Assembly: GCA_963771175.1 (NCBI GenBank)
Contig: CAVYSY010000046.1
Span: forward strand, 128,001-192,000
DNA from: an uncultured delta proteobacterium
Lineage (GTDB): Bacteria; Myxococcota; Myxococcia; Myxococcales; Myxococcaceae
Length of the DNA stretch: 64,000 nucleotides
Reading direction: 5' to 3'
Part shown: positions 1-17,512 of the stretch, piece after piece
Layout: the number at the start of each line of letters is the position of its first letter
Numbering within the stretch: the stretch's first letter is position 1
Notes under the pieces: model-generated
What the model saw: the letters and a program-made list of their open reading frames with translations, nothing else
The model's database searches: none
Told to the model about the DNA's origin: nothing
Position numbers and translations under genes: made by a program

Positions 1-688
1 GCGCGTCCGGCTCGAGCTCCTCGACCTTCACGGGCTTCAGGGGCTTGAGATCCTTCGTCACCGAGAGGGCCTGCCAGCAGCCGTAGCCCATGAAGCCGAA
101 CATGAAGGCGGCGTAGAACATGCGGGCGCTCAGGGCCAGGAGCGTCACGCCGGCGGCGGTGATGACTCCCAGCCAGAGGGCGATCCGCTGCCGGGTGGGC
201 CCGAGGATGCCGCCCGCCACGTGGCCTCCATCGAGCGGAGGTACCGGCAGCAGGTTGATGATGCCCCACCCGAAGTTCACCCACATCAGATCCCGGAAGA
301 TGACGTGGGTCGTGTAGCTGCGCGCGGGCACCAGATGGTCGACGCCCAGGATGATGGCCCCGAAGAGGAAGCCCGCGAGCGGCCCGGCGGCGGCGACGGC
401 CACGCTCCGCCAGCGGCTCAACCCCTGGTGGTAGCAGAGGCCACCGATGGAATAGAGGCGGATGCTCGCCCAGCCGCTGCCCAGGCTCATGGACATCAGC
501 GCGTGTCCCAGCTCGTGGATGAGGATGGACACGAAGCAGACGGCCACCCAGGAGAGGACCTGCGGCATGCCCCGGGCCCCGACCATCCCGAAGAGGGCCG
601 TCACCAGCCAGAAGCTTGGCTCGACCACGACCGGGATGCGGCCGAGCGAGAATTGCAGGGAGAAGGGGGCGGCGGGTTGGGTGCTCAT
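1..688 (-). CDS. Site-2 protease (M50 family intramembrane zinc metalloprotease), runs off the left window edge
   Basis: Not in the ORF track because it is truncated; my translation from ATG at 688 gives MSTQPAAPFSLQFSLGRIPVVVEPSFWL...ILIHELGH (HExxH)...AAAGPLA...INLLPVPPLDGGH (NxxPxxxLDG), with several hydrophobic segments. Confidence 0.9.
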   Translation of the reverse strand, partial: MSTQPAAPFSLQFSLGRIPVVVEPSFWLVTALFGMVGARGMPQVLSWVAVCFVSILIHELGHALMSMSLGSGWASIRLYSIGGLCYHQGLSRWRSVAVAAAGPLAGFLFGAIILGVDHLVPARSYTTHVIFRDLMWVNFGWGIINLLPVPPLDGGHVAGGILGPTRQRIALWLGVITAAGVTLLALSARMFYAAFMFGFMGYGCWQALSVTKDLKPLKPVKVEELEPDA

Positions 689-706
689 GTTCCTCGGGAA
701 TGAAAA

Positions 707-1378
707 TCAGTTCTTCGCGTCCACCCGGAACGCATTGGAATAGGTCTCTCTTCCCTCCTCGTCCACCAAGAGGATGAGGAAGTTGTTGCCGGGCGTGTCG
801 ATGGTGAGCTGCTCCTGGCGCACGCCTCCGGAGAAGGGGCCGCTCTGGAAGCGGGTGGTGGTCGCGTTGCCCTGGAAGCGGAGGATGCTCATCGTCACCG
901 TTCCCTCGAACCGATCGGCGTTCGTGCCCGTGGCATGGATGGTGACGGTGAAGGGCTGATCCTGGATCTGAACGCCGATGGGCTCGATCCAGAAGCCGAG
1001 GTAGGGCCGGACCTGGTAGGCCTGGGAGAGGGTGGCCTCGCGTCCATCCGGCAGCGACACCCGGAGGTCGTAGGTGCCCACCTCCAGACCCGGGTTCACG
1101 GTGCCCTCGAAACGGCCATTGCCCAGGTACCGCTCCAGCGGCACCAGCTGCGAGCCCACCTGCAGCGTCGGCTGGTCGAGCAGCTGTGCCGTCTGCGTGC
1201 CGTAGTCCACGAGGAAGCGCGGCTCCAGGTCGAGCTCCACGACGACGGCCTTGGACTCGGCGGCGCTCTGCTGCGTGGGCGCGACGGAGAGGATGTGGAA
1301 CTCCGTTGGCGTCGAGGGCTTCTCGGGCTCGCACGCGCACAGCAGCGCCACGAGCATGGGCAGTAGGACCGTTCTCAT
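707..1378 (-). CDS. Lipoprotein with Ig-like (IPT/TIG-like) beta-sandwich domains
   Basis: MRTVLLPMLVALLCAC lipobox; beta-rich body ('ILSVAP...GTYDLRVSLPDG'); start overlaps the stop of the upstream gene. Confidence 0.7.
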   Translation of the reverse strand: MRTVLLPMLVALLCACEPEKPSTPTEFHILSVAPTQQSAAESKAVVVELDLEPRFLVDYGTQTAQLLDQPTLQVGSQLVPLERYLGNGRFEGTVNPGLEVGTYDLRVSLPDGREATLSQAYQVRPYLGFWIEPIGVQIQDQPFTVTIHATGTNADRFEGTVTMSILRFQGNATTTRFQSGPFSGGVRQEQLTIDTPGNNFLILLVDEEGRETYSNAFRVDAKN

Positions 1379-9783: not shown

Positions 9784-10632
9784 ATGGACGAACAGACCTT
9801 CATGAAGCTGATGCAGATCCTCCCCAAGTCCGCGCTATCCACGGCGGTGGGGATGGCCACGCGCCTGCCCGTGCCGGCGCCACTGCACCGGGCGGCCATC
9901 AAGGCCTTCGCGAAGTCCTACAACGTGGACGTCGCCGAGGCCGAGCACACCCTCGAGCACTACCCGACCTTCGCGCAGTTCTTCACCCGCGGCCTCAAGG
10001 CGGGCCTGCGTCCCGTGGAGCCGGGTGAGAAGGTCGTCGTGTCCCCGGTGGACGGCGCGGTGTCCCAGGTGGGCTACTCCGAGCACGGCCGTGTCATGCA
10101 GGCCAAGGGCATCCACTACACCGTGGACGAGCTGCTCGGGGACCCCCAGGCCGCGAAGCCCTTCCACGGCGGCGCCTGGACCACCATCTACCTGTCGCCC
10201 CGCGACTACCACCGCATCCACTCGCCGCTCGGCGGGAAGATCACCGGGTACTCGTACATCCCCGGCGAGTTCTGGCCCGTGAACGTGGCCTCGGTGAAGT
10301 ACAAGCAGGCGCTCTTCTGCGTGAACGAGCGGCTCGTCACCTACCTCGGACACCGCTGGCCGGCCAGTGCGCCGTGGTGAAGGTGGGCGCCACGTGCGTG
10401 GCGCGCATCAAGGCCGCCTATGACGACGTCGCTCACGCACACGGGCAAGCCGGGCAAGGTGCACCGCTACGACTCCGCCATTCCGGTGGAGAAGGGCGGG
10501 GAGCTGGGCCGCTTCGAGATGGGCTCCACCGTCATCCTGCTCTTCGAGCCGGGTCGCGTGCGCTGGGACGAGAGCCTCGCAGCCGGAGGCCGGTGGTGCG
10601 CATGGGCCGGCGCATCGGAGAGGTCGTCGTGA
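9784..10632 (+). CDS. psd: Phosphatidylserine decarboxylase proenzyme (frameshifted in the 3' third)
   Basis: [35 protein letters not shown], and GRFEMGSTV self-cleavage motif spread over several frames. Confidence 0.92.
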
Positions 10633-11926
10633 GTCAGAAGGTCAGTGGCGTCAAGGGGATGAACGACCTCCTCCCCGGTGAGGTCGAGGTGTGGCAGCAC
10701 CGTCGAGCGCACCGCCCGCGAGCTGTTCGGGCGCTTCGGCTACGGCGAGGTGCGCACCCCCATGGTCGAGGACACCGCGCTCTTCGTGCGCAGCGTGGGC
10801 GAGGAGACCGACATCGTCGGCAAGGAGATGTACACCTTCGAGGACAAGGGCGGCCGCAGCCTCGTCCCTGCGCCCCGAGGGCACCGCGCCGGCGGCGCGC
10901 GCGTACATCGAGCACTCCGTCGTCAACCAGGAGCCGCTCACGCGCTGGTTCTACATGGGCCCGATGTTCCGCTACGAGCGCATGAAGACGGGCGCTACCG
11001 CCAGTTCCACCAGATCGGCGCCGAGGCCTACGGCGCGCAGGAGCCCGCCGCAGGACGTCGAGGTGATGGACATGGTGGTGCAGTTCCTCGAGGCGCTGGG
11101 GCTCACCGACGTCTCGCTCAACCTCAACTCGCTCGGGGACGAGGCGTGCCGGCCCGTCTACCAGGCGAAGCTGGTGGAGCACCTGCGCGCCCACCGCGAG
11201 CGAGCTGTGCGCCGACTGCCAGGAGCGGCTGGATGCGCAACCCGCTGCGGGTGCTCGACTGCAAGAACCGAGCGCTGCCAGGAGATCGCCAGCGCCGCGC
11301 CCAACATCCTCGAGTTCCTGTGCGAGCCGTGCCGCGCGCACTTCGCCGAGGTGCAGCGCAAGCTGGACGCGCTCGGCATCCGGTACGTCGTCAACCCGCG
11401 CATCGTGCGCGGGCTCGACTACTACACGCGCACCACGTTCGAGTTCATCGCCTCGCACCCCGCGCTGGGCACCGCCAGCACCGTGGGCGGCGGCGGGCGC
11501 TATGACAAGCTGGTGAAGAGCCTGGGCGGGCCGGACGTGCCCGCGGTGGGCTTCGGCCTCGGGTTGGATCGGCTCTGCCTGCTGCTCAAGGAGAGCGGCC
11601 AGCAGTTCTCCCAGCCGGCGGACCTCTTCGTCGCCGTGGCGGACGAGGGCTCGGCGGATGCCGCCTTCGTGCTCGCCAGCACGCTGCGCCGCGAGGGCCT
11701 GCGCGTGGAGTTCGACACGCGCGGCGGCAGCCTCAAGAGCCAGATGAAGCGCGCCGACAAGGTGGGGGCCCGCTACACGCTGGTGCTCGGCCAGAACGAG
11801 CGCGAGAGCGGCAAGGCCCAGCTCAAGCCCATGGCGGGCGGAGAGCCCCTCGCCGTGGAGCTCGCCCACGTGGCCCGCACCTTGCGTGAAGCACTCTCCC
11901 GGTCCTCGACTCCCTCGGCCTCCTGA
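10629..11926 (+). CDS. hisS: Histidine--tRNA ligase (multiple apparent frameshifts)
   Basis: [61 protein letters not shown] and the anticodon-binding domain [11 protein letters not shown]. Confidence 0.95.
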
Positions 11927-12039: not shown

Positions 12040-12447
12040 GTGATGCCACAGGACTGGACGCACGCGGAGCGAGAGGGCCCGTGCTGGATTCCCATCCGGG
12101 GAGACAGCATGTGGCCCTCTTTGCGTTCGGGCGACGTGGCGCGCGTGGAGCCGCTGACGGAGTCTCCTCGGCCCGGCGAGGTGGTGGTCGCGCGCTTCGA
12201 CCATGCGCTGGTGGTGCACCGCGTGCGCCGCTGTGACGCGGACGCGTGCGTGCTGCGCGGGGACAACGTGCCGGCGGAGGATCCGCCCCTGCCTCGCGCG
12301 CGGCTGCTGGGGCGGGTGCGCTTCGTGCGTCGTGGGGGCGAGGTGCTCGCGCCGGCCCGGTGGGATCGGGGGCCCCTGCGTTGGGGCCGCTGGCGCGTGG
12401 TGGTGAAGCGCGGGCTGGCGGCGCTGCTCGGGCGGAGGCGCGCATGA
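12040..12447 (+). CDS. S24/S26 family peptidase (Ser-His type), no membrane anchor
   Basis: IRGDSMWPSL (catalytic Ser box), VVHRV, LRGDN; 135 aa without a hydrophobic TM segment. Confidence 0.88.
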   Translation: MMPQDWTHAEREGPCWIPIRGDSMWPSLRSGDVARVEPLTESPRPGEVVVARFDHALVVHRVRRCDADACVLRGDNVPAEDPPLPRARLLGRVRFVRRGGEVLAPARWDRGPLRWGRWRVVVKRGLAALLGRRRA

Positions 12448-12731
12448 GCTTCCGAGCGGACAGCATCCCCCATCGGCGCGAGGGCGCGGACGGTCAGCGC
12501 TTCGGCGAGGACTTCGTGGTGTTGGATCCGGAAGGTCACATGCTTCGGGGTCTCAACGAGACGGCCGCGCGGGTCTGGGAGCTGGTCGACGGCCGGCGCA
12601 CCGCGCGCGACATCGCCGGAGTGGTGGCGAGCGAGTACGGCGTGGAAGTGGAGCGGGTGCTCGGGGACTGCCTGTCCTTCCTCGCGCGACTCGTGGGACA
12701 TGGGCTGTTGGACGCGGAGGTGCATCGATGA
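12444..12731 (+). CDS. PqqD family RiPP recognition element (RRE)
   Basis: 95 aa; EDFVVLDP..LNETAARVWELVDGRRTARDIA..VASEYGVE..DCLSFLARL..GLL matches the PqqD consensus; ATGA overlaps at both ends. Confidence 0.92.
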   Translation: MSFRADSIPHRREGADGQRFGEDFVVLDPEGHMLRGLNETAARVWELVDGRRTARDIAGVVASEYGVEVERVLGDCLSFLARLVGHGLLDAEVHR

Positions 12732-13186
12732 GAGTGCTCGGGATGGCGTCTGTGCTCCTGCTGCTGGCCGCGTGCGACCAAGGCAGCGTCCCGAATCCTC
12801 CCGACTGGGGGTCGTGGAATGGCATCACTCCGCCGGTGCGGCCCACGCCGCCGCTGCCTCCGCTGGTGGGCGTGGCGGAGGTCGCCTACGTGCCCGAGGG
12901 CGCGCGCGGTCTGTCCGAGGTGACGTCGGTGGAGGTGCGGCTGCGCGTGAGTGGCATCGTCAACTCGGCGTCGGTGGACGCGGAGTTCCTCGCTCCCGGC
13001 CCCGCGGTGTACGAGCGGCGCACCCGCACGGTCGAGGCCCTCCCCACGGAGCAGCGTGAGCTCGTCTTCAGCCTGCCGGTGGCCGCCACCCAAATCCCCA
13101 TCCATGGCCTGAGTGGCTCCTGGGAGGTGCGCTTCTTCGTCGATGGCGCGCCCCTGACCACCACCGCCTTCACCCTGGAGCGCTGA
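12728..13186 (+). CDS. Lipoprotein with a single Ig-like beta-sandwich
   Basis: LLLLAAC lipobox; Pro-rich tether; GSWEVRFFVDG...AFTL terminal strands. Confidence 0.8.
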   Translation: MRVLGMASVLLLLAACDQGSVPNPPDWGSWNGITPPVRPTPPLPPLVGVAEVAYVPEGARGLSEVTSVEVRLRVSGIVNSASVDAEFLAPGPAVYERRTRTVEALPTEQRELVFSLPVAATQIPIHGLSGSWEVRFFVDGAPLTTTAFTLER

Positions 13187-13190
13187 CGCC

Positions 13191-16100
13191 ATGATCGCCC
13201 GACTGCTCGCGCTCCTGTTCCTGCTGCTGCCCGCCGCCGCGCTGGCCCAGAACGCGTGGACCGTCACGCCCGTCGACGGCTCCGCGGTGATGGGGGAGAT
13301 CTCCTCGCTCGTCTTCGAGGTGCGCAACGCCTCCACCAGCACCCGACCGATCAACGAGATCAGCCTCGCGGTGGATGGCACCGCCTATGACGTCGACGGT
13401 GGGGATGCTCCGGTGGGCTGGACGGTGAGCACCATTGATCGCAAGGAGCGCCGCATCACCTATTCGGCGAGTGGCTCCTGCGCTCCGGGGCCGTTGGGGA
13501 TCGCGCCGGGAGCCTCCGTGCGCTTCACGCTGCGGCTCGTGGGCCTCGCCGCCAACGCCGATGTCAACGACGCGCTGCTGGCCGGCAATGCCAGCAAGAA
13601 GGCGAGCGAGGCGCGCGACACCTGCTCCGGCACCACGTTCTCCGGAGACCCGACGCTGGCGCGCTGGAAGCGGGTGGGCCTGTCCGCGAGCCTCTCGGTG
13701 CTGCCGCGCACCCTCCAGCTCGGGGGCAACGTCACCGTGCAGCTCGTCGTGGTGAACCGCTCGCTGGTGAACCAGAGCGGCATCTCCCTGAGCGGCCCCG
13801 TGGTGGTGGGGAGCGCCACCTTCGACAAGACGGTGGTGAGCTTCTCGCCGGCCACGCTCTCGCTCGCGCCCGGGGCCACCGGGGCCTTCACCGGCAAGCT
13901 CCAGGCCACGGGGGAGGGGACCGCCTTCCTCCAGGCCTCGGCGGCCAACGCCGCGGTGAGCACCGCGCAGACCTCCTCGCTCCATGTGAACGTGAGCAGC
14001 TTCCCGGCGCTCATCGAGGCGCTGCCCTCCAGCATCGCCCCCGGCGATACGGTGACGGTCCGCCTCGTGGTGTCCAACCCCTCCAAGAGCACCTACCGGG
14101 ACGTCGTCCCCCGTGCTCTTGGATTCGTGGGAACGGCGACGCCCTCGATCCTGAGCGGCCCCACTCCCGCGAGCGCCACGTCGCTCAGCCCGGGCGCGTC
14201 CATCTCCTTCGTCTGGAAGTACCGCGTGGACGGGCCCATTGGCGCCACCTTCGCGTTCCAGGGCCAGGCGGATGCCACGCGCGACGGCGTGCCCCTCTCC
14301 ACGGGCCCGGTGGTCTCCTCTCAAGGGCGCATCGTGGAGCACCGGCTGGCCATCGAGCCCGCCTCCCTCATCTCCGGCGCGAGGAACAAGACGCTCCGCT
14401 ACACCCTCTACAATGGCGGCACGGTGGAGATCCGCTCCGTGAAGCTGCTCGTGCCGGACACGACCTTCTTCACCGTGTCGGGCACGCCCTTCGCCAACGA
14501 CTCCAGCGGGTGGAACACCAGCCCCAACAAGGGCTACACGTGGACGGCCCCCACTGGTGCGCCCGGCATCACTCCGGGCTCGCAGAAGACCTTCGCCATC
14601 GACTACGCCGCCATTGGCACCGTCGCCAGCGACACGGCCTTCAGCCACCAGTTGGAGCTGACGCAGGTGAGCGGCTCCACCACCAACGCCCTCCGCGTGG
14701 ATGCTCCGGTCACCGTCTTCGTCAACCGCGTGCTGCCCGAGGTCGAGTCCCTCGTGGCGCTCGCCGGGCCCCAGCGCAACACGCTCCTGTGGACCAACCC
14801 AGCCGATCATGACGGTGTGCTCGTGCTGCGCTCCGTGGGCTCCGCCCCCAGCACCGCTCCCGAGCCGGGTCGCCGCTATGTCTTGGGCGAGACGCTCGGC
14901 AACGCCACGGTGGTGTACTCGGACGAGCTGAGTGTGGCCTCCTCCTTCGCCGACACCGGGCTCACCGATGGCACCCCCTACGTCTACCGGGTCTACAACC
15001 ACGACGCGCTGTACCGGTACTCGCCGGGCAACGCGCCGCAGTCGCTCGGGTTGAAGTCGACTCCCACGGGCCGCGGGCCCGGCCAGCCGCTGTGGTGCTA
15101 CAGCGTCGGCTTCTCCTCGCTCCAGCAGCCCATCACCGAGCCGGGTCCCACCGGGGGCATCTTCACCTCCAACTCCTCGGGCCGCGTGACGGCCAGCCTG
15201 ACGAACACGTCCTCGCCCGAGCTCGACGGCAACGAGCGCTGGCGCCCGGTGCAGCTCCAGGGCGCCGTGCAGAGCCGCTTCCCGCTCGTCCCGCTGCACG
15301 GTCTTCCCGGGCAGTACATCCTCACCGGCGATCAGGCGGGCTACCCCTACGCCATCCGCGCCGAGACCGGAGAGCTCCTCTGGCGCGGCGCCTCGCTCGG
15401 CATCATCCAGTCCTTCCCCGTGGTGCAGCTCCACGACTACGCCGGCACCGCATACAAGGCGGCTCACCCCAATCGCGATCTGGCCTTCTTCGCCACCCGG
15501 TTGAGCACCGGCACCGACAACAAGGTGGTGGCGCTCGATGCCGCCACCGGCGTGCCCGTGTGGACGTACGCCCCGGGCGACCTCGGCATGGTGAGCGGGG
15601 GCATGTTGATCGACTACACGTACAACCGACTGTTCGTGGGCGCTCGCTCCAACGGAGGCTCCCTGGCCTCGCTGCGCGTCCTCGATAGCCTCACCGGCAC
15701 CGAGCTGGCCCGGCTGTCCCTTGGGGATATCGACTTCGGCCTCGTCCGCTATGGCTCGGCGCTCCTGGCGCTCGTGACGAACAGCGACGGCACCGTGTAC
15801 GGCGTCGACATGGCGAAGCTGACCGTGGCCTGGAGCGCGGCGGTGGCCACCCGCCCGTCGGCCTCGGTGCCCGCGTTCTCCCAATATGCCCGGCCGGTGA
15901 CGAGTGGCTTCGTCGTGAGCATCCTGGGCGCCACCGACGCGGAGGGCAGGGTGGAACGCTGGAACCTCACCACCACCTCCACGGGCACCACGGTGACGCG
16001 GACCTGGTCCACCCCCATCCCGAGCCCCTCCGGCTCCTTCTCGGCCACCCTGGGGGGCGTGCAGCGCCTCTATGTCGGCGGCAAGGACGAGAAGGTGCAC

Positions 16101-16253
16101 GAGCTGGAGATGGCCACCGGCGTGGATGGCAGGCAGATCTCCCTCCCTGGCGCTCTGGCCATCGGCACTCCGACAGTGGACACCTCCGTGTCGCGCCTCC
16201 ACGTGGGCACCCAGGATGGCCGCGTCTGTGCCTTCCAGGTGCCCTTCCCCTGA
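13191..16253 (+). CDS. Large secreted protein: tandem Ig-like/FN3-like domains plus C-terminal PQQ-like beta-propeller
   Basis: Sec signal ending ALA-Q; Ser/Thr-rich beta domains; FADTGLTDGTPYVYRVY (FN3-like); propeller repeats AIRAETGELLW, ALDAATGVPVW, VLDSLTGTEL, LHVGTQDGRVCAF. Confidence 0.85.
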   Translation: MIARLLALLFLLLPAAALAQNAWTVTPVDGSAVMGEISSLVFEVRNASTSTRPINEISLAVDGTAYDVDGGDAPVGWTVSTIDRKERRITYSASGSCAPGPLGIAPGASVRFTLRLVGLAANADVNDALLAGNASKKASEARDTCSGTTFSGDPTLARWKRVGLSASLSVLPRTLQLGGNVTVQLVVVNRSLVNQSGISLSGPVVVGSATFDKTVVSFSPATLSLAPGATGAFTGKLQATGEGTAFLQASAANAAVSTAQTSSLHVNVSSFPALIEALPSSIAPGDTVTVRLVVSNPSKSTYRDVVPRALGFVGTATPSILSGPTPASATSLSPGASISFVWKYRVDGPIGATFAFQGQADATRDGVPLSTGPVVSSQGRIVEHRLAIEPASLISGARNKTLRYTLYNGGTVEIRSVKLLVPDTTFFTVSGTPFANDSSGWNTSPNKGYTWTAPTGAPGITPGSQKTFAIDYAAIGTVASDTAFSHQLELTQVSGSTTNALRVDAPVTVFVNRVLPEVESLVALAGPQRNTLLWTNPADHDGVLVLRSVGSAPSTAPEPGRRYVLGETLGNATVVYSDELSVASSFADTGLTDGTPYVYRVYNHDALYRYSPGNAPQSLGLKSTPTGRGPGQPLWCYSVGFSSLQQPITEPGPTGGIFTSNSSGRVTASLTNTSSPELDGNERWRPVQLQGAVQSRFPLVPLHGLPGQYILTGDQAGYPYAIRAETGELLWRGASLGIIQSFPVVQLHDYAGTAYKAAHPNRDLAFFATRLSTGTDNKVVALDAATGVPVWTYAPGDLGMVSGGMLIDYTYNRLFVGARSNGGSLASLRVLDSLTGTELARLSLGDIDFGLVRYGSALLALVTNSDGTVYGVDMAKLTVAWSAAVATRPSASVPAFSQYARPVTSGFVVSILGATDAEGRVERWNLTTTSTGTTVTRTWSTPIPSPSGSFSATLGGVQRLYVGGKDEKVHELEMATGVDGRQISLPGALAIGTPTVDTSVSRLHVGTQDGRVCAFQVPFP

Positions 16254-16260
16254 GCCCTCG

Positions 16261-16443
16261 ATGACGCGCGATCCCCAGCCACCTCCCGAGGGAGCTCCGC
16301 CCGCGCCGGCCGTGGCCTCGCGTGCGCGCGTCTACGAGCCCCCCGCGGTGCTCTGGGAACAGCCCTTCGTCGCGCTCGCGCAGGTGTCCTTCAACGGCGA
16401 CTACGGCTGCGAGATCCCCGGCTCGTGCGAGGATATTCCGTGA
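16261..16443 (+). CDS. Putative RiPP precursor peptide (60 aa)
   Basis: MTRDPQPPPEGAPPAPAVASRARVYEPPAVLWEQPFVALAQVSFNGDYGCEIPGSCEDIP; fills the gap between flanking genes; YxxP motif; GC-ending codons. Confidence 0.75.
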   Translation: MTRDPQPPPEGAPPAPAVASRARVYEPPAVLWEQPFVALAQVSFNGDYGCEIPGSCEDIP

Positions 16444-16459
16444 GGAGGAGCCGCCGCCC

Positions 16460-17254
16460 GTGGTGACGCTGTCGCTGGCGGGCTGGACGGTGTCCCTGGA
16501 GTCCGAGGACACGGCGCTGGAGGAGCTGCTCGTCCGGGCGTGCCTCGCGTTCCGCACCTCCGAGCCGGCTCGGGCGCACGTCCGGGTGCTGCGTCCGGCG
16601 GTCTCCCGTCCGAGTCCCGCCGTGCGCTCCCTGCCGGAGATCCGCCCCGTCCCTGGTGGCGGTCAGCGGGTGGAGGGGGAGGACTACGTCGCGGACATCG
16701 CTCCCGAGGGCCGGAGCGCCACCGTGACGGGCGAGGGCCGCTTCCCCGTGGACACGGTGTTGAAGGTGATGCTCGCGGGCGAGCTGGCGAGGCGCGGGGG
16801 CCTGCTGGTGCACGGGGTGGCGGTGGAGCACCTCGGACGCGCTGCTCTGTGGACGGGCCCGTCCGGGGCGGGGAAGAGCACCCTGGCCGGGCTGTGGGCG
16901 AGGTCTGGCGGCACGGTGCTGACCGATGAGCTGGTGGCGGTGTGGCCCGAGGCGGGAGGCTGGCGCGCCGCCGGGACGCCGTGGAACGTGGGCATGCCTC
17001 GCGAGGCCTCGCTGCGCGCGGTGGGCCTCCTGGGCTGGGACTCGGGTTCGCGCTGGGAGCCCGTGGGGGCGGGGGAGGTGGCCCGGGTGCTGCTGCTCAA
17101 CGCGCTCCTGCCCGAGTCCTCCGCCGCCGGACGCCGCCATTTGATGGCTACGGCGGGCCGCCTGCTGGCGGAGGTGGAGACGGCCCGGCTCGTCTTCGCG
17201 CGAGATGCCTCCGCGGCGGACGTGGTGCGCGCGGGGCTGGAGCGCGGCTTCTAA
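16460..17254 (+). CDS. HPr kinase-related P-loop protein
   Basis: GGAGGAG RBS before GTG; LLVHGVAV...GPSGAGKSTLA...LTDE...GTPW, the His / Walker A / acidic pair layout of HprK-like kinases. Confidence 0.85.
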   Translation: MVTLSLAGWTVSLESEDTALEELLVRACLAFRTSEPARAHVRVLRPAVSRPSPAVRSLPEIRPVPGGGQRVEGEDYVADIAPEGRSATVTGEGRFPVDTVLKVMLAGELARRGGLLVHGVAVEHLGRAALWTGPSGAGKSTLAGLWARSGGTVLTDELVAVWPEAGGWRAAGTPWNVGMPREASLRAVGLLGWDSGSRWEPVGAGEVARVLLLNALLPESSAAGRRHLMATAGRLLAEVETARLVFARDASAADVVRAGLERGF

Positions 17255-17398
17255 GTCATCCGAAGAGAGTCCGTGCAGGGGTGGCTGCCGGGTGCGACCT
17301 TCGGCAACCTGTACGATAAGTGTACAAGTTGGGGCGGAGCGCGGCCGGGAGGTCGGTGGGCCTCCGTGCACAGGGGACCCGCCGGGCTCGGTCTTCGC

Positions 17399-17425
17399 AA
17401 ACCTGTCCGACAGTCGGACAGGTTT
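17399..17425. repeat. Perfect 13-bp inverted repeat (terminator, REP-like element or operator)
   Basis: AAACCTGTCCGAC-A-GTCGGACAGGTTT, followed by TT. Confidence 0.75.
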
Positions 17426-17512
17426 TTGAAAAGCGAGACCGGGAGGTGGTTGGGTCTCTTCCAGGCCCGAGGAATTCCGCTGGTTCATGGTACGAGCGGG
17501 GGTGGAGCGTCG

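Follow-up and report, generated by a model that had tools for sequence, protein, structure and literature searches.

A six-gene operon of the Myxococcaceae resembles the clusters for linear polyphosphorylated peptides and is co-inherited with genes for predicted surface proteins

An operon of six genes, found in a 64-kb window of DNA (G+C about 70%) from an uncultured delta proteobacterium of the Myxococcaceae (assembly GCA_963771175.1, contig CAVYSY010000046.1, positions 128,001 to 192,000), probably encodes a myxobacterial version of the pathway for linear polyphosphorylated peptides (LPP), co-inherited with a cell-surface module. In what follows, the window means this whole 64-kb stretch. 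LPP belong to the peptides that are ribosomally synthesised and modified after translation (RiPPs). The operon codes for an S24/S26-type leader peptidase, a PqqD-type RiPP recognition element (RRE), a lipoprotein, a giant surface protein with immunoglobulin (Ig)-like and propeller domains, a small precursor peptide and an HprK-like enzyme (Table 1), and family searches and fold matches agree with the identity that a preliminary description of this DNA had given to the peptidase, the RRE, the surface protein and the HprK-like enzyme. That description had called the operon a new RRE-dependent system. For the enzymes this goes too far, as they match those of LPP; what is new is the variant, having no exporter, no nucleoside triphosphate (NTP)-transferase and embedded surface genes, and occurring outside the Bacillota. 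We found no description of the myxobacterial cassette in the open-access literature, in which LPP itself is described in its founding paper alone.

LPP clusters are represented by lppA, K, B, S, D and N of Paenibacillus alginolyticus DSM5050, a member of the Bacillota (Popov et al., Nat Commun 2026, PMC13381572). Their parts are the archaeal-type signal-peptidase-like LppS, the discrete RRE LppB, the HprK-like LppK, the NTP-transferase LppN and the MsbA-like pump LppD. The precursor carries the motif YxxPxVLxHQxIxFETxxS, and LppK adds several phosphates to Ser3 of the core. LppS cuts behind T-1 solely when LppB presents the leader, and mutations of F-3, E-2 or T-1 reduce cleavage (PMC13381572). 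The main text of that paper describes LPP as 'restricted to the Bacillota', its supplementary peptidase lists might hold other phyla, and the biological role is given there as unknown. In the window, the stretch YEPPAVLWEQPFVALAQVS of the 60-aa peptide aligns gap-free with the LPP motif as set out in the available text, so that Y25 stands at -16, P28 at -13, V30 at -11, L31 at -10, Q34 at -7, F36 at -5, A40 at -1 and S43 at +3. At -5 the window has F where the consensus has I, both of them hydrophobic. Because the window peptide falls into the LPP register, cleavage is predicted at A-L-A↓Q-V-S and phosphorylation is predicted on Ser43. The predicted cleavage site is also a classical signal-peptidase A-x-A site.

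The peptide has 34 database homologues, every one of them unnamed and most labelled Archangium. In the homologue alignment the first 22 or so residues are variable, residues 23-43 hardly vary and the tail retains C-x-I-P-G-S-C-x-D-x-P. Y25, P28, E33, A40, P53 and P60 are invariant, and S43, C50 and C56 are nearly so. The cores of type-1 loci retain C-x5-7-C, and Ser43 is never lost across the 17 type-1 loci compared, its codon being TCC, TCG or AGC. When 16 related loci were compared pairwise with the window over the 19-codon block encoding YEPPAVLWEQPFVALAQVS, 55 synonymous and 21 non-synonymous codon differences were counted, in comparisons that are not phylogenetically independent because the loci are related. 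A profile of the peptide searched against solved chains gave no match at E<=10. The small open reading frame (ORF) had been proposed as a precursor gene in the preliminary description. Its presence in homologous loci, its homologues and the excess of synonymous over non-synonymous changes uphold that proposal, and these comparisons indicate that the ORF is a real gene.

The protein of gene 1 matches Pfam Peptidase_S24 (E 5.5e-11), and its residues S23, H60, D75 and D81 are invariant across 10/10 aligned homologues. Sub-threshold matches were obtained to the NCBIfam families sod_Ni_protease, the maturation protease of nickel superoxide dismutase, and sigpep_I_arch (6.5e-7, under the cut-off). 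The translation shows no hydrophobic stretch at its N-terminus, and gene 1 is predicted to encode a soluble clan SF peptidase of the S24/S26 type. Since His occupies the position where bacterial signal peptidases have Lys, the predicted enzyme is of the Ser/His/Asp type known from archaeal and endoplasmic reticulum signal peptidases. LppS depends on S29, H68 and D93, and its S29A, H68A and D93A variants are inactive (PMC13381572).

The gene 2 protein is a clear PqqD match in Pfam (E 2.6e-17), and its closest solved chains are the lasso B1 protein TbiB1 (5v1u) and LppB (9x8z_B). In a gap-free HMMER alignment to 9x8z_B, N38 and D75 of the window RRE correspond to N33 and D70 of LppB, the residues reported to hold the Pro kink and the Tyr of the leader (PMC13381572). 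D75 is invariant in 15/15 homologues, and N38 is retained in 12/12 type-1 homologues.

For gene 6, the AlphaFold2 (AF2) model has a predicted local distance difference test (pLDDT) score of 97, and the top Foldseek matches are phosphoenolpyruvate carboxykinase and HprK/P. H118, the P-loop G133-T141 (GPSGAGKST) and D156-E157 are invariant in 10 homologues. Tested at full length against HprK/P (TIGR00679), the protein scored 15.3 bits against a cut-off of 240, and the likeness is limited to the catalytic core. Gene 6 is thus a predicted peptide Ser kinase of the LppK-like kind. Its family comprises 158 cluster representatives at E<=1e-30, and the alignment of the family took the 103 near-full-length sequences among 150 listed representatives. 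Only the generic P-loop pattern of a kinase alignment was used for a wide contig scan; among the matches listed there were at least six loci, none of them informative for the cassette.

In the pathway that we propose, the 95-aa PqqD protein would bind the leader at Y25-x-x-P28-x-V30-L31 as an added beta-strand, and the HprK-fold kinase would place one or more phosphates on Ser43, the third core residue. Under the guidance of the RRE, the soluble signal-peptidase-like enzyme of the Ser/His/Asp type would then cut behind Ala40. Cleavage would release a very acidic core of 20 residues, QVSFNGDYGCEIPGSCEDIP, in which the two Cys could join in a disulphide loop of seven residues after the peptide has left the cytoplasm. 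The lipoprotein and the 1020-aa protein would be envelope partners, most likely binding, displaying or responding to the phosphopeptide. The preliminary description had also proposed that the RRE delivers the peptide to the kinase and the peptidase. This is supported by the LPP precedent as described in the available text, by the register of the motif and by the conserved residues of the peptidase, the RRE and the kinase. It is very unlikely that the locus is no RiPP pathway at all, with the small ORF encoding a peptide that regulates or chaperones the surface protein and with the PqqD and HprK-like proteins acting in signalling. Such a role would fit the facts that the product is not known, that an exporter is absent and that the HprK-like matches lie under family cut-offs, but it leaves aside the leader-plus-core layout with the lasso/LPP YxxP motif in exact register, the conserved binding residues of the RRE and the adjoining leader-peptidase-type enzyme with its intact triad.

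The six co-directional genes have phosphatidylserine decarboxylase and hisS as upstream neighbours and miaA downstream. Their place between hisS and miaA, their coordinates, the ATGA overlaps at 12444 and 12728 and the gaps of 4, 7 and 16 nt are exactly as the preliminary description had claimed. Pfam and NCBIfam searches of the six operon proteins found no lasso cyclase, B2 protease, radical S-adenosylmethionine (SAM), YcaO or ABC family, in line with the absence of these enzymes and of an ABC exporter noted earlier. Kinase orthologues with at least 76% identity occur in 12/17 genomes of the same genus and in G024. All six genes stand in the same order in 12/12 fetched loci (11 same-genus genomes and G024; G011, with a contig of 2.6 kb, is outside the synteny analysis), and within the fetched stretches hisS is visible in 10 of these loci and miaA in 9. 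The six genes also lie between hisS and miaA in 4/4 loci from four other genera (G153, G180, G229 and G049), which makes the block syntenic in 16/16 fetched orthologous loci carrying it. Five same-genus genomes lack a kinase orthologue, and none of the six genes stands between their hisS and miaA, which are either adjacent (in G001 and G013 with some 80-150 nt between them) or 2.3-5 kb apart. The neighbourhood comparison thus bears out that the genes travel together, with two exceptions, G021 and G023. G021 has the RRE, the lipoprotein, the large protein, a 4-Cys peptide and the kinase at another site, and G023 is taken up below. G021 has a second HprK-like gene (L032:6720-7439), which shares a contig with that cassette at a distance of 7.5 kb and is preceded by no YxxP ORF. 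At the G023 locus, where a secreted AhpC/TSA-thioredoxin-like protein with a CxxC motif (L031:9503-10090) adjoins the peptidase gene, no ORF for a YxxP peptide was detected.

The lipoprotein gene is kept in G021 and in each of the 16 orthologous loci with six genes. Searches of Pfam and NCBIfam gave no match for its product, and an Atlas search gave only unnamed lipoprotein-like clusters. The 1020-aa protein matches Pfam PQQ_2 (E 2.5e-8), and its AF2 model, built from 16 sequences with a mean pLDDT of 74.7, predicts an Ig-like array followed by a propeller. Foldseek matched it to BamB and to designed 8-bladed propellers, with target-normalised template modelling (TM) scores of 0.63-0.78, and also to Ig-array proteins such as PrgB. 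The earlier claim that a lipoprotein and a secreted Ig/propeller protein sit in the middle of the operon is therefore corroborated by PQQ_2, the model and Foldseek. An alignment of 16 sequences of the large protein, which omits L025 and L060 as tblastn broke their large gene into three pieces, shows numerous invariant positions, C636 and C1013 among them. Neither the model nor the Foldseek matches revealed an enzymatic domain. A complex prediction for residues 515-1020 of the surface protein with residues 31-60 of the peptide scored 0.02 against a mark of 0.32; it was run without controls and counts neither way.

A second cassette is present in the same genome on contig C32 (L035:8120-15596, minus strand). 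Its order is PqqD, a 1211-aa Big_13 Ig protein, a 646-aa FG-GAP propeller, a 46-aa peptide with a P-Y-R-P-P-R-V motif and two Cys, an HprK-like gene and an S24-like gene. It is flanked by genes for an EamA transporter and a metallo-beta-lactamase-fold protein, which likewise stand beside it in other genera. This FG-GAP layout was found in 13/15 loci around weaker kinase matches in relatives and in 6/19 further loci across the phylum, often with the same housekeeping flanks. The Ig and propeller proteins on C32 have no BLASTP similarity to the 1020-aa protein of the window (best E 0.57-0.94), and a common origin of the surface proteins of the two cassettes is unsupported by BLASTP. Relatives align to about the first 900 residues only of the 1211-aa ORF (L035:11650-15285, minus strand); its tail resembles an out-of-frame read and may reflect another indel in the assembly.

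Beyond the two cassettes, a member of the HprK-like kinase family, which is a count of the kinase and not of the full cassette, is present in 178/301 sampled Myxococcota genomes. Among 55 distinct HprK-like genes examined, 4 duplicate rows having been removed, 38 have a YxxP ORF directly upstream; motif position 19-20 is Ser or Thr in 33 of these 38 ORFs, and one or more Cys follow position 16 in 37. This regular presence of a Cys after the conserved Ser/Thr, together with the C-x5-7-C of the type-1 cores, would fit a different chemistry, in which the phosphate of Ser43 is eliminated and a core Cys adds to form a lanthionine-like thioether, or in which the Cys are modified by an enzyme encoded elsewhere. 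We consider this improbable, as the operon has no lyase, cyclase or radical SAM enzyme and as the phosphates remain on Ser3 in LPP, the only characterised relative (PMC13381572, available text). Precursors in three loci from other families of Myxococcota (L055, L066 and L067) lie upstream of HprK-like and S24 genes with no Ig or propeller genes. They end in Gly-Ser and contain three Cys (for example ...C-K-T/G...C...G-x-C...G-S). Their C-terminal Ser recalls the target of the lasso kinases, and they may be a different subfamily.

Several observations weigh against the assignment to LPP or against its coupling to a surface module. At -8, -3, -2 and -1 the window peptide has E, A, L and A, whereas LPP has H, F, E and T. 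Unlike the LPP clusters in the available text of PMC13381572, the operon has neither an NTP-transferase (LppN) nor an MsbA-like exporter (LppD), and its flanks are hisS and miaA. A family search found no transporter or NTP-transferase family among the six genes, and the NTP_transf_5 genes of the genome lie on another contig, C57, in a polysaccharide-like locus. In a profile search with 15 RREs, TbiB1 was found at 4.2e-13, PqqD at 3e-11, LppB at 3.1e-11 and PbaB1 at 3.9e-8; as to placement in the LPP clade, the profile does not favour LppB over PqqD or over TbiB1 of the lasso B1 type. The peptidase matches to named NCBIfam families are under the curated cut-offs, and so are the weak matches of the kinase (TIGR04352 at 1.1e-5, Hpr_kinase_C at 0.026, TIGR04355 and ScmC). 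The binding by the RRE and the sites of phosphorylation and cleavage, which we would place by homology to LPP, are all carried over from one system of the Bacillota. In G023, only the peptidase, the RRE and the kinase stand between hisS and miaA, and 9/19 phylum-level loci have no Ig or propeller match.

The last two observations are also what would be expected if the maturation genes made a free phosphopeptide, with a role in signalling, as an antibiotic or as an effector inside the cell, and if the lipoprotein and Ig/propeller genes were passengers with an unrelated surface role. Such surface proteins are absent from the Bacillota LPP clusters as presented in the available text (PMC13381572), and no exporter of the operon links a cytoplasmic peptide to the envelope. 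However, the operon encloses the surface genes, which follow the RRE gene and precede the precursor gene at ATGA overlaps and gaps of 4-7 nt. The arrangement persists over at least six genera, the block is found or missing as a whole, and the paralogous cassette repeats the layout with Ig and propeller proteins of unrelated sequence. Because they are part of a translationally coupled operon, are inherited and lost with it and have a different Ig-plus-propeller set as their counterpart in the paralogue, the surface genes are probably functional partners, and a mere neighbourhood of unrelated genes seems rather unlikely to us. It is co-inheritance that argues for the functional tie to a cell-surface structure put forward in the preliminary description. 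We infer this link between the LPP-type pathway and the surface protein, and synteny suggests both an interaction with the surface protein and export by a transporter encoded elsewhere.

A more specific reading, which we hold only tentatively, is that the phosphorylated, disulphide-looped 20-mer could be an exported ligand or small subunit loaded onto the Ig-array/propeller protein and the lipoprotein at the cell surface, so that a RiPP would serve as a prosthetic partner. The Myxococcota would then keep two ancient paralogous versions, one with a BamB-like 8-bladed propeller at hisS-miaA and one with an FG-GAP propeller at the second site. If true, this would be the first function for phosphopeptides of the LPP kind. 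The locus suggests that the LPP-type enzyme trio and leader logic reach the Myxococcota. In the sampled loci of the Myxococcaceae and related families the pathway is usually accompanied by giant Ig/propeller surface proteins, and the coupling to surface genes is a testable hypothesis for the purpose of the phosphopeptide. A Myxococcus-type genome has the same six genes at hisS-miaA, which brings the question to genetically tractable relatives. If the link holds, RiPP chemistry would be joined to the surface biology of myxobacteria, for example adhesion, motility and kin contact.

Table 1. Features of the operon region, of the precursor peptide and of the 1020-aa protein. Positions are those of the window; residues are those of the protein concerned.
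Feature	Residues	Position	Strand	Remarks
Leader peptidase gene (LppS-like)		12040..12447	+	135 aa; start GTG 12040 or ATG 12043
PqqD-type RRE gene		12444..12731	+	95 aa
Lipoprotein gene		12728..13186	+	152 aa; signal peptide ending in lipobox LLAAC
Surface-protein gene		13191..16253	+	1020 aa; Sec-type signal peptide
Precursor-peptide gene		16261..16443	+	60 aa
HprK-fold P-loop enzyme gene		16460..17254	+	264 aa; GTG start after GAGGAGGA
Terminator-like hairpin and U-run		17394..17432	+	140 nt past the last operon gene, ahead of miaA
Predicted leader	1-40	16261-16380	+	LPP register
Predicted core	41-60	16381-16440	+	LPP register
Predicted phospho-acceptor	Ser43	16387-16389	+	core position 3
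Predicted RRE-binding motif	Y25-L31
Predicted cleavage	between Ala40 and Gln41
Core Cys	C50, C56
1020-aa protein, signal peptide				Sec-type
1020-aa protein, Ig-like beta-sandwich array	~20-510			AF2 model
1020-aa protein, FN3-like domain	~520-610			AF2 model
1020-aa protein, conserved region	611-695			AF2 model; poorly modelled
1020-aa protein, 8-bladed BamB-like beta-propeller	~700-1016			AF2 model

The hairpin downstream of the operon has a fold energy of -21.6 kcal/mol and a z-score of -4.35, and 0/200 shuffled sequences were equally stable. A scan for consensus terminators did not pick it up, though folding reveals it. No promoter-like site was found by a sigma-70 scan of the operon region, and Rfam gave no match at gathering thresholds between 11800 and 17700. 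The neighbouring hisS (10374-11926) is spread over several reading frames: by comparison with four relatives, one base is missing near 10992 and one is extra near 11051. These indels scramble 20 codons, a motif among them, and the N-terminal part also changes frame twice, whereas relatives such as G023 have an intact single hisS ORF of 419 aa. The breaks reflect either an indel error of the assembly or a damaged gene, and no such breaks occur in the six operon genes. On contig C24 (L084:2303-9552), a third PqqD-domain protein of 163 aa lies about 5 kb from a gene of the MbnB/TglH/ChrH family (MNIO; E 7e-76). This is probably a separate peptide-modification locus.

Among known systems, lasso kinases modify the C-terminal Ser, whereas the conserved Ser of the window peptide is at core position 3 and its C-terminus is Pro. 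Phosphorylated lasso peptides (paeninodin, Bsf type) share with the window a B1-type RRE and an HprK-like kinase (PMC10368454 and PMC13381572, available text), and the lasso B1 protein TbiB1 is the best solved match of the window RRE. The window operon differs in lacking both a B2 cysteine protease and an Asn-synthetase-like cyclase. The YxxP leader, the B1-like RRE and the HprK-like kinase, all found in phosphorylated lasso clusters, could also belong to a cryptic lasso pathway that draws on a B2 protease and a cyclase from genes elsewhere. In the whole genome, which is 81.66% complete, the best match to Transglut_core3 (PF13471, B2) reached 22.7 bits against a cut-off of 26. In addition, a dedicated S26-like peptidase is present instead, and the core starts Q-V-S with Ser at +3 as in LPP, so that a cryptic lasso pathway is most improbable. 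A lasso-peptide reading was rejected, as B2 and the cyclase are absent from the operon and no B2 above the cut-off is present in the genome. A FG-GAP repeat protein that borders the bsf lasso cluster of Bradymonas sediminis was deemed 'presumably not involved' (PMC10368454) and may merit re-examination given the cassettes described here.

The HprK-related kinase A/B families (TIGR04352 and TIGR04355) and SynChlorMet ScmC and ScmD (TIGR04249 and TIGR04248) are similar to the window in the pairing of an HprK-like with a PqqD-like protein, and these families include the best NCBIfam matches of the kinase. The scores are far under the cut-offs (24.7 against 200 for an HprK-related kinase family, 17.8 against 125 for ScmC and 21.2 against 100 for ScmD), and the window operon lacks the radical SAM/SPASM partner of SynChlorMet. 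A propeller also occurs in quinohemoprotein amine dehydrogenase (QHNDH, qhp operon), as its beta subunit. Neither a haem motif nor any hint of a quinone cofactor occurs in the window operon. The likeness to the qhp operon is in logic only: a leader-bearing, Cys-containing peptide is modified and trimmed in the cytoplasm and then joined to co-encoded large periplasmic partners. In qhp, cross-linking and trimming of the small subunit come first; an ABC pump then exports it, and it assembles with the large periplasmic subunits (PMC7876137). The radical SAM enzyme, subtilisin-like protease, flavoprotein and ABC exporter given for qhp in the available text of that paper are all absent from the window operon.

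The closest comparison is with the LPP clusters, as far as the available text of PMC13381572 describes them. Both have a Ser/His/Asp leader peptidase whose gene in the window adjoins a discrete RRE gene with an ATGA overlap, an RRE with an Asn/Asp pair for leader binding, an HprK-like kinase with invariant His, P-loop and Asp-Glu, and a YxxP precursor with Ser at core +3 in spite of the differing leader positions. Neither has a macrolactam cyclase. The window differs in its short core of 20 aa with two conserved Cys, and in the lipoprotein and 1020-aa Ig/propeller genes embedded in the operon. The LPP clusters are patchy in Bacilli and lie beside capsule loci, whereas the block described here is vertically conserved at hisS-miaA in the Myxococcota.

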